Shown here in pieces: positions 6,001 through 9,000 of a DNA stretch of 64,000 nt. The DNA is from Escherichia coli (lineage in GTDB: Bacteria; Pseudomonadota; Gammaproteobacteria; Enterobacterales; Enterobacteriaceae), in the NCBI RefSeq assembly GCF_001677475.2, contig NZ_CP012498.1. One strand, 5' to 3'. Each line of letters starts with the position of its first letter. The first letter of the stretch is position 1. A program made the position numbers.

Positions 6001-9000
6001 GGATATCCCGGACAACAGCGTCCAGCCGGGAGCCGGAAATGGCGAACCGGTCACGGCAGAGGTACTGGCACAGCGGCAGGCTGAAGAGGCTATCCGCCGT
6101 GAAACGGAACGCCGTGCGGATGAGATTGTCAGAAAAATGGCAGAGGAAAAACCTGACCAGCCGGATGACAAAACAGAGCAGGCTGTCAGGGAGATTGCCG
6201 GGCAGGAGCGTGACCGGGCTGTCACTTCTGAACGGGAAGCCGTACTGCCGGAGAGTGTGCTGCGTGAGCCTCAACGGGTGCAGGACGCTGTCCGGGAGGT
6301 TGCCCGGGAAAATCTGTTGCAGGAGCGACTGCAGCAGATGGAGCGGGATATGGTCCGTGACCTGCAGAAAGAGAAAACCCTGGGTGGAGACTGATACTGT
6401 CGGCCCGGGCGTTTGTGTTAACCCCCTGAGGAGATTGCTGATATGGAAACCTTCCCTGACCCTGATGACATCCGGGGAAAAACAGCAGACATACTGAGCG
6501 CGTTATCCGTGGACAATATTCCTGAGCGTTATGGCTTTACGGCAGAGCTGGCATCGCTGAAAAACTGCATAAGCGAGGATGAATATTGCAACATGGAGTT
6601 TTACGAGACGGGGTGCGCCTTCCTGAAAGCTTTACTGAGAACCCGGCTGAGACTTAAAAAAACCGACCCCGCGCATCCGTTGCTGCCCGTGATATCTTCG
6701 TCGGTGGAAGAGCTCAGAACACAGCTTAAGGAAAATGAAGCTTACGTCCGCCTTTTAATCGGGATGGATGCGGTTTCCCGACGGGTTGGTGTGATGAATG
6801 TGTCTCTTCTCGGCCTTACCGCAGTGATGATACTGATTATCGGGGGAACTGTGCTGGCACATGTATGGTTTTAAAGCTTCGTAAGGCGTGATGATATGGA
6901 GAATATGAATAACACGGTCGGTGTTGTGACCATGAAACCCCGGGAATGGCTGGAGCGCCTTCTTGTCTGGTCCCCCGGACAGCGGGATATCATCAAAACT
7001 GTGGCTCTGGTACTGATGGTGCTGGACCATGCAAACCGCATTCTGCATCTGGATCAGACGTGGATGTTTCTGGCCGGGCGGGGCGCGTTTCCGCTGTTTG
7101 CCCTGGTGTGGGGGGGGAATCTGTCCCGTCATGCGCATATCCGGCAGTCGGCCATTAACCGGCTGTGGGGATGGGCTGTGATTGCCCAGTTCGCGTATTA
7201 CGTTGCCGGCTTTCCCTGGTATGAAGGGAATATCCTGTTTGCCTTTGCGGTTGCGGCACAGATGCTGACGTGGTGTGAAACGCGCAGTTGGTGGCGTTTG
7301 GTGGGGGTCATATTGCTGCTGGCAGCGTGGCTGCCTTTGTCTGGCACCAGTTACGGCATTGCCGGGCTACTAATGCTGGCGGTCAGCCACAGGCTGTACA
7401 GGGAGAAAGACAGAACGGAACGTCTGGCGCTGGTTGCCTGCCTGCTGGCCGTGATTCCTGCGCTTAACCTCGCCACCAGTGATGCGGCGGCTGTAGCTGG
7501 CCTTGTGATGACGGTGCTGACCGTTGGTCTGGTGTCGTGTGCAGGGAAATCACTACCCCGTTTCTGGCCCGGGGATTTTTTCCCGATTTTCTATGCCTGT
7601 CATCTGGCTGTGCTGGGCGTTCTGGCACTGTGACGGGTGTGGTATCTTTGACTGTAACAGGATTATTCGTCAGAGGCAGAACACAGCATGACAGAGCAGA
7701 AGCGACCGGTACTGACACTGAAGCGGAAAACGGAAGGAGAGACGCCTGTCCGCAGCCGGAAAACCATCATCAATGTCACCACGCCACCAAAATGGAAGGT
7801 GAAAAAGCAGAAGCTGGCCGAGAAAGCGGCCCGGGAAGCAGAGCTGGCGGCAAAAAAAGCGCAGGCCAGGCAGGCGCTGTCCATTTATCTGACTCTGCCT
7901 TCACTGGATGAGGCCGTGAACACCCTGAAGCCCTGGTGGCCGGGATTATTTGACGGTGACACACCCCGGCTTCTGGCCTGCGGTATCCGTGACGTGTTAC
8001 TGGAAGACGTGGTGCAGCGGAATATCCCGCTCTCGCATAAAAAACTGCGCAGGGCGCTGAAGGCCATTACCCGTTCAGAAAGCTATCTGTGTGCCATGAA
8101 AGCCGGTGCCTGCCGGTATGACACGGAAGGGTATGTGACGGAGCATATTTCTCAGGAGGAGGAAGCGTATGCGGCAGCGCGTCTGGATAAAATCCGCCGC
8201 CAGAACCGGATAAAGGCAGAACTTCAGGCCGTGCTTGATGAGAAATAAAAAAAAGCCTCCATCAGAGAGAGGAGGCAGGGAAATAAGGCTTAAAAGGAAA
8301 TAACTTCCGTACCCGAAAGGAAGCCAGTCCACTGAATTATTTACCACAATAATACTGACGACTGAAAGGGAGGGACAGAAAAATGAATGGATTCAGAAAC
8401 AGTTCACGGAACGCTCAGGTCTGGCGCTGGCAGCGTGCCGGCGGGCTGCCTGCATAGCTCCCCGGACAGACTGGCAGCAGTTTGCCCGGAAAAGGGCTGA
8501 ACACTGCCACCGGCGCTGCCGGGGAAGGGTGTAACGAAAAAAGCAGCCTTCATTACTCCAGGAGTCAGAAGGCTGAATAATGCATGAGATTTACTTTTTT
8601 AATCTCCGGTCGGGCAGTATGACCGGACAATTCTGAGTAGCACAGAGTTTTTTCCGTATTAAGTCGTGATTTTATATTTTGTGATTTATTTCACAAAATA
8701 AGGTGTTATTCAATGTGTGCTGCAATATTCAGGATGTCTGAAATAAAGGAGCCATTTATTTGATATGGAGAATAATATGAGGAAATATATTCCACTGGTA
8801 TTATTTATCTTTTCATGGCCGGTATTGTCTGCAGATATTCATGGACGGGGTGTTCGTGTACTGGATGGTGATACCATCGAGGTAATGGACTTACTGAAGG
8901 CGGTGCGGATCAGGCTGGTAAATATTGATGCACCGGAAAAGAAACAGGATTATGGCCGCTGGTCGACAGACATGATGAAATCACTGGTTACAGGAAAAAC

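Follow-up and report, generated by a model that had tools for sequence, protein, structure and literature searches.

The Escherichia coli plasmid region analysed here, a 64,000-nucleotide stretch of contig NZ_CP012498.1 (assembly GCF_001677475.2; hereafter the window), carries an uninterrupted finO that, judging from its sequence, appears to be a functional copy of the fertility-inhibition gene of F-like plasmids. Taken as a whole, the observations are probably best explained by a functional finO, by conjugative transfer that is repressed if the tra operon works, and by an IS3 that is a separate element. An intact finO and a copy of IS3 are both already known and ordinary in this species. The features on which this account is based are collected in Table 1.

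Table 1. Features of the transfer-distal region, the IS3 element and the RNA matches in the window.
Feature	Coordinates	Strand	Evidence or remark
traD 3' end (coupling protein), last 408 bases	1-408	+	Frame-1 translation
vapC	417-815	-	ORF; PIN Pfam match on identical gene in relatives
vapB	815-1045	-	ORF; MazE_antitoxin Pfam match on identical gene in relatives
traI (relaxase/helicase), 1756 aa, intact	1124-6394	+	ORF
AS-traI, inside traI	3973-4049	-	Rfam, above gathering score
ORF of 143 aa between traI and traX	6443-6874	+	ORF
traX (pilin acetylase), 245 aa	6896-7633	+	Pfam TraX, E 6e-65
finO, 186 codons	7688-8248	+	ATG start, uninterrupted; 54 bp 3' of traX
AGC triplet, counterpart of the IS3 target of F in finO	8081-8083	+	Unoccupied
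Short GC-rich hairpin beside an A/T run, just 3' of the finO stop	8256-8272		Sequence
AS-pc02 antisense RNA, just 3' of finO	8431-8613	-	Rfam, above gathering score
sok	10597-10757	+	Rfam, above gathering score
CopA	11564-11652	-	Rfam, above gathering score
isrN	48112-48254	-	Rfam, above gathering score
GGG target-site duplication, left	62484-62486		Flank of IS3
IS3 variant, complete, 1258 bp	62487-63744	-	Ungapped alignment to F IS3
IS3 orfB, 288 aa, 9 substitutions	62517-63383	-	Pfam rve, rve_2, HTH_21; -1 frame
IS3 orfA, 99 aa, 3 substitutions vs F	63380-63679	-	Pfam HTH_Tnp_1
Slippery site A-AAA-G (CCAAAAGG), programmed -1 frameshift	63413-63417	-	Identical to F IS3
GGG target-site duplication, right	63745-63747		Flank of IS3

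The finO gene and its product

A sequence-only reading of the window had described finO as open through all its 186 codons, and this was borne out: the reading frame is unbroken, its product matches the NCBIfam FinO model NF010317 from residue 1 to residue 186 of 186 (361.6 bits for a cut-off of 136), and the site taken by IS3 in F is empty. Both Pfam domains expected of the protein, FinO_N (E 2e-39, 133.7 bits) and ProQ/FinO (E 6e-27, 94.3 bits), were detected, so that domain content and full-length subfamily match agree in placing it in the ProQ/FinO superfamily. It is also closely related to experimentally characterised FinO. Over the 152 residues compared with the structure 1DVO it is identical at 145 (95%), with 7 differences and with Trp36 conserved. 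Six of its 186 residues differ from F FinO as rebuilt by removing IS3 and 7 of 186 from R100 FinO (179 identical), that is, 96-97% identity to both. The gene lies where this family would be expected: it follows traI and traX as the distal gene of an F-type tra operon. Exactly the same protein was found in 98 blocks of public assemblies, which indicates a circulating allele and not a decaying copy. The hairpin just beyond the stop codon was called terminator-like on the - strand only, and we regard it as a putative element.

The F plasmid (NC_002483) is collinear with the window over traX-finO, with 94% nucleotide identity, and the alignment breaks at ~8080-8088 of the window, where F has a 1258-bp IS3. 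In F this element follows finO codon 132 and is flanked on either side by an AGC duplication; when the IS3 and one AGC are removed, a 186-aa reading frame is restored. The earlier statement that IS3 breaks the finO of F can thus be seen directly in this alignment, and it agrees with the published account (PMC5102898). Since the window reads through at the point where the alignment with F breaks, its finO is intact and its F-type AGC site is empty.

The IS3 element

The IS3 copy had been described as apparently intact, and its boundaries proved exact: both reading frames, the slip site, both terminal repeats and a GGG duplication are in place. The element aligns without gaps to the two copies of F, with 96.6% and 96.2% identity; isoforms of an insertion sequence are, by rule of thumb, those sharing more than 95% of their nucleotides. 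It differs from the F element by 43 substitutions, 12 of which change amino acids. The characters of the IS3 group are all found in it, namely a length of ~1258 bp, imperfect terminal inverted repeats with TG...CA ends, an overlap of orfA with a -1-frame orfB and an A-AAA-G slip, an rve (DDE) core and a 3-bp target-site duplication, and its near-identity to the reference element assigns it to IS3 itself. Relative to F, the left terminal repeat is unchanged and 5 of the first 40 nt of the right repeat are substituted; 25 of 40 positions match between the arms, compared with 28 of 40 in F. To judge by its sequence, the element is apparently transposition-competent, and its target duplication suggests that it has been active in the past.

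To look at the insertion site, we searched a plasmid collection with the two flanks of the element joined by one GGG. Forty records covered at least 80% of this joined sequence in one place, the best 10 of them in full and as a single piece. In CP010123 the target is unfilled, with exactly one GGG at the junction and no insertion sequence. The GGG found on both sides in the window, set against the single GGG of CP010123, shows a true transposition with the 3-bp duplication that IS3 is expected to leave. The insertion is bounded by an orfA remnant (~62078-62420), which resembles IS2 InsC and which we take to be IS2-like, and by an IS110-family transposase gene just past the end of the window. 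Among complete E. coli genomes, only 19 records have copies at least 99% identical to this variant; of the matches listed, the best are all on plasmids of ~218-242 kb, including known relatives that carry a type VI secretion system (T6SS). Over 50168-64000, the window is matched at 100% identity by the contig AASZJL010000029.1, in which this IS3 occupies the identical position. Lying 54 kb from finO among other insertion sequence remnants, this IS3 is a separate element without effect on finO.

Further traces of such elements are scattered through the window. Three IS3-like fragments are found at 17657-17796, 18965-19527 and 43256-43537 (98%, 91% and 87% identity to the complete copy, respectively), and between 15.7 and 19.6 kb there are additional IS3-family and integrase-type transposase reading frames. 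Past position 64000, contigs that match the right end of the window at 100% identity continue with an IS110-family transposase, a further IS3-family element, a pair of AraC-family regulators and a fimbrial operon of the PapD/PapC chaperone-usher type.

Frequency of intact finO and of IS3

In the sequence-only reading, finO was noted as intact although IS3 is present on the same plasmid. This contrast turned out to be uninformative. Complete E. coli genomes yielded 4009 records of finO-like DNA, in 3895 of which (97%) it forms a single uninterrupted piece, and IS3 (at least 80% of the element) is present in 3817 of 5426 complete E. coli genomes (~70%). In the survey of Fernandez-Lopez et al. 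(2016), 200 classical (group A) F-like plasmids were all finO+ with the exception of F, which was termed "the oddest case" (PMC5102898). An intact finO together with an IS3 on the same replicon or in the same host is the normal condition, and F is the exception. Both frequencies and this survey rule out that an intact finO is surprising given the presence of IS3. What can be retained is that intact finO is the default state, which helps in annotating the plasmid and in gauging roughly how it spreads. As a complete IS3 is carried by the same replicon, derepressed mutants of the F kind could arise by its transposition into finO, an event equally possible in most E. coli hosts.

The tra operon in the window and in close relatives

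The window opens inside traD and continues with vapCB, traI, a 143-aa reading frame (orf143), traX and finO; traJ, finP, oriT and the pilus and secretion genes are upstream, outside the window. All the tra genes visible in it, namely the 3' end of traD, traI and traX, are intact. The full traD of relatives encodes 717 aa with the TraD Pfam domains, and the exact TraI protein, with TrwC and TraI domains, was found in 44 blocks of public assemblies. Between traD and traI, the VapC/VapB toxin-antitoxin pair occupies the same position as in F. The product of orf143 had no Pfam or NCBIfam match; this reading frame is present in all close relatives and is not annotated in F or R100. On the 3' side of finO are a thermonuclease gene, the sok RNA match (hok/sok region), CopA and the IncFII repA.

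The probable state of the remaining tra genes on this replicon can be judged indirectly from close relatives, which we found by exact-protein look-ups in public assemblies. In PLSDB, identity over the tra end does not exceed ~98%, the window as such did not turn up among the RefSeq complete E. coli genomes, and matches of 99.97-100% come from draft contigs only. The contig ABOZJW010000032.1 matches positions 1-16392 of the window with 0 mismatches and 2 gaps. Upstream it has intact traG, traS, traT and traD, with traH cut by the locus edge, and it extends a further 21.5 kb, which by its length could accommodate the segment from traM to traH. ABSIDA010000026.1, whose TraI and FinO are those of the window and which shares 99.85% nucleotide identity over 1-8441, could be followed in four overlapping loci spanning the leading region, traM, traJ (215 aa), traY through traD, traI, traX and finO; every expected tra and trb gene was called in it from traM to finO. 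DBKXZU010000025.1 (99.73% identical over 1-13324) has traM and traJ as well as Rfam matches to FinP (94.4 bits for a cut-off of 45) and to the traJ 5' UTR to which FinP is antisense (121.3 bits for a cut-off of 50). The 110-nt traJ leader of this contig is matched exactly in ABSIDA010000026.1 and JAGEWD010000031.1. Its first loop is unlike those of F and R100 and indicates a distinct FinP allele, as expected of a plasmid-specific RNA. Finally, JAQMUJ010000003.1, a contig of 184.8 kb, is 99.8% identical over 1-18219, and its tra genes were followed upstream to traC. If the window's replicon resembles these relatives, it would carry traJ, finP and a complete tra operon.

Other relatives are less well preserved. 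The large plasmids with a T6SS have another traJ allele, of 228 instead of 215 aa. In CP169398, traN is split by two IS3-family copies; in AEZI02000011, traU is split by an IS21-type element; in JBHFKE010000002, traJ, traC, traW and traN are all split; and in ABDNCK010000026, the tra region has lost an internal segment from traC to traS. As far as these sequences indicate, the plasmid lineage of the window is mosaic and prone to tra decay.

This variation makes it conceivable that the plasmid is no longer self-transmissible, its tra operon being deleted or broken by insertion sequences outside the window, in which case finO would be a remnant and its repression moot. Apart from the relatives with disrupted tra genes, the abundance of insertion sequences in the window goes in this direction: together with the complete IS3 and the three IS3-like fragments, there are IS110-, IS630-, IS481- and other IS3-family transposase reading frames. 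An essential transfer component is, moreover, missing in 50 of the 200 classical (group A) F-like plasmids, a quarter of them, and some plasmids retain only traI-traX-finO (PMC5102898). Nevertheless, the contigs that are 99.85-100% identical to the window over the tra-distal region have an unbroken traG-to-traD segment (ABOZJW010000032.1) or an unbroken traM-to-finO segment (ABSIDA010000026.1), and traI, traX and the traD end are intact in the window itself. We consequently hold a non-transmissible plasmid to be unlikely, though the most serious of the alternatives to a functional finO that represses a working tra operon.

Expected control of transfer

In F-like plasmids, the antisense RNA FinP masks the ribosome-binding site of the traJ leader by pairing with this leader, FinO acts as an RNA chaperone that shields FinP from RNase E and makes the FinP-traJ duplex form faster, and, as long as TraJ is lacking, neither the PY promoter nor the tra operon is active (PMC5102898; PMC7690428). 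The insertion of IS3 in the finO of F removes this control and raises transfer by two to three orders of magnitude (PMC5102898; PMC7690428). On the plasmid of the window, FinO and FinP would block TraJ synthesis and keep the tra operon mostly off. Provided that traJ, finP and a functioning tra operon lie upstream, transfer would be expected at the low, repressed level of natural F-like plasmids, unlike that of derepressed F.

This is the textbook expectation that the sequence-only reading had expressed on condition of a functional tra operon, and it is a reasonable one, with finP and traJ presumed on this replicon. The near-identical contigs with traJ, FinP and full tra regions lend it indirect support. 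Under this expectation, intact finO predicts a low, transiently derepressed spread of a plasmid that carries T6SS and enterotoxin genes, and not the constitutive rate of F.

RNAs other than FinP and traJ might also be served by FinO. A precedent comes from Salmonella, where the FinO of pSLT is reported to bind a FinP-like sRNA controlling the copy number of a second plasmid (PMC8136791). The window has its own antisense RNAs (CopA, sok, AS-pc02 and AS-traI). By analogy, finO might be kept on a T6SS/ST-toxin virulence plasmid for more than the control of traJ, for instance for chaperoning CopA, sok or AS-pc02, or RNAs of co-resident plasmids, as in the pSLT report; we found no sign of this and think it very doubtful. 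That FinO mainly serves such targets, in its own or a co-resident plasmid, seems to us more far-fetched still: nothing in this analysis points to FinO binding by CopA, sok, AS-pc02 or AS-traI, and close relatives do encode its canonical partner, FinP/traJ.

Other genes in the window

The more unusual content of the window is a T6SS cluster and a gene for a divergent ST-I enterotoxin. The plasmid-borne T6SS cluster (21717-44878, + strand) comprises tssB, tssC, tssE, tssF, tssG, vgrG, a DUF6931 gene, tssA, tssJ, tssK, tssL, tssM, clpV and a VasL-like gene. The genes tssK and tssL are separated by an IS110-family transposase reading frame (33651-34442), which may interrupt the cluster. Just after it, a gene at 45143-45784 (+ strand) encodes an effector-like protein of 213 aa with weak similarity to AvrPphF-ORF-2 / EspJ-type ADP-ribosyltransferases. 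A second effector-like reading frame, of 157 aa (61244-61717, - strand), has a weak match to the YopT-like Peptidase_C58 family.

The toxin gene (51640-51858, - strand) encodes a 72-aa member of the ST-I family of heat-stable enterotoxins (Pfam Enterotoxin_ST, E 8e-14), whose residues 20-71 share ~71% identity with canonical sta1. Its sequence ends ...NTFYCCELCCNPACAGCS, with Ser as the last residue; canonical STp ends in Tyr. Among PLSDB plasmids, an identical toxin was found in only 2, AP025748 (Escherichia sp., bovine) being one, and no occurrence of the toxin string ending AGCS turned up in the searchable literature. The window also contains a second replicon with a Rep3/RepB initiator and a ParA-type partition gene (54049-55026 on the - strand and 56620-57614 on the + strand).

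Comparison with F and R100

The transfer region of the window resembles that of F in having the same gene in the same context: traX and finO are 54 bp apart, and vapBC lies between traD and traI. It differs in finO itself, which in F holds IS3 after codon 132 with the AGC duplication and in the window has this site empty. The IS3 of the window also resembles the F copies and the E. coli K-12 type: they agree in length (1258 bp), in the sizes of orfA (99 aa) and orfB (288 aa, read in the -1 frame), in the A-AAA-G slip, in their TG...CA termini and in the 3-bp duplication.

The main difference from R100 in this region concerns orf286, a 286-aa alpha/beta hydrolase gene between traX and finO, which is absent in the window; without it, the window has the F-type layout at this point. 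Van Biesen and Frost are said to have found in 1992 that orf286 raises finO mRNA and that plasmids devoid of it repress less strongly, reportedly ~20-50-fold, compared with 100-1000-fold when it is present, so that the F-type layout would mean weaker repression than in R100 or R6-5. We found no report of an effect of orf286 on finO in the searchable literature. A functional tra operon under weak or leaky repression, due either to low finO expression or to a lowered activity of FinO caused by its 6-7 substitutions, would be compatible with this layout. It would also fit with finO being transcribed solely at the far end of the long tra mRNA; a consensus scan of the + strand from 6300 to 8800, uninformative in itself, revealed no promoter-like site for finO alone. 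However, the substitutions are conservative and spare Trp36, the exact protein is widespread, and even the weaker class of plasmids represses, which makes a weak or leaky repression improbable in our view. Repression of the ordinary kind is most likely, possibly that of the weaker class without orf286.

In other respects, the FinO of R100/R6-5 (PDB 1DVO) is the closest experimentally studied parallel in structure and setting: it has 186 aa and the same two domains, its gene is the last one after traX, and it is followed, as in the window, by the nuclease gene, hok/sok and IncFII repA of the leading-region layout. The host plasmid of the window differs from R100/R6-5 in having, in addition, the T6SS cluster and the divergent ST-I toxin gene.
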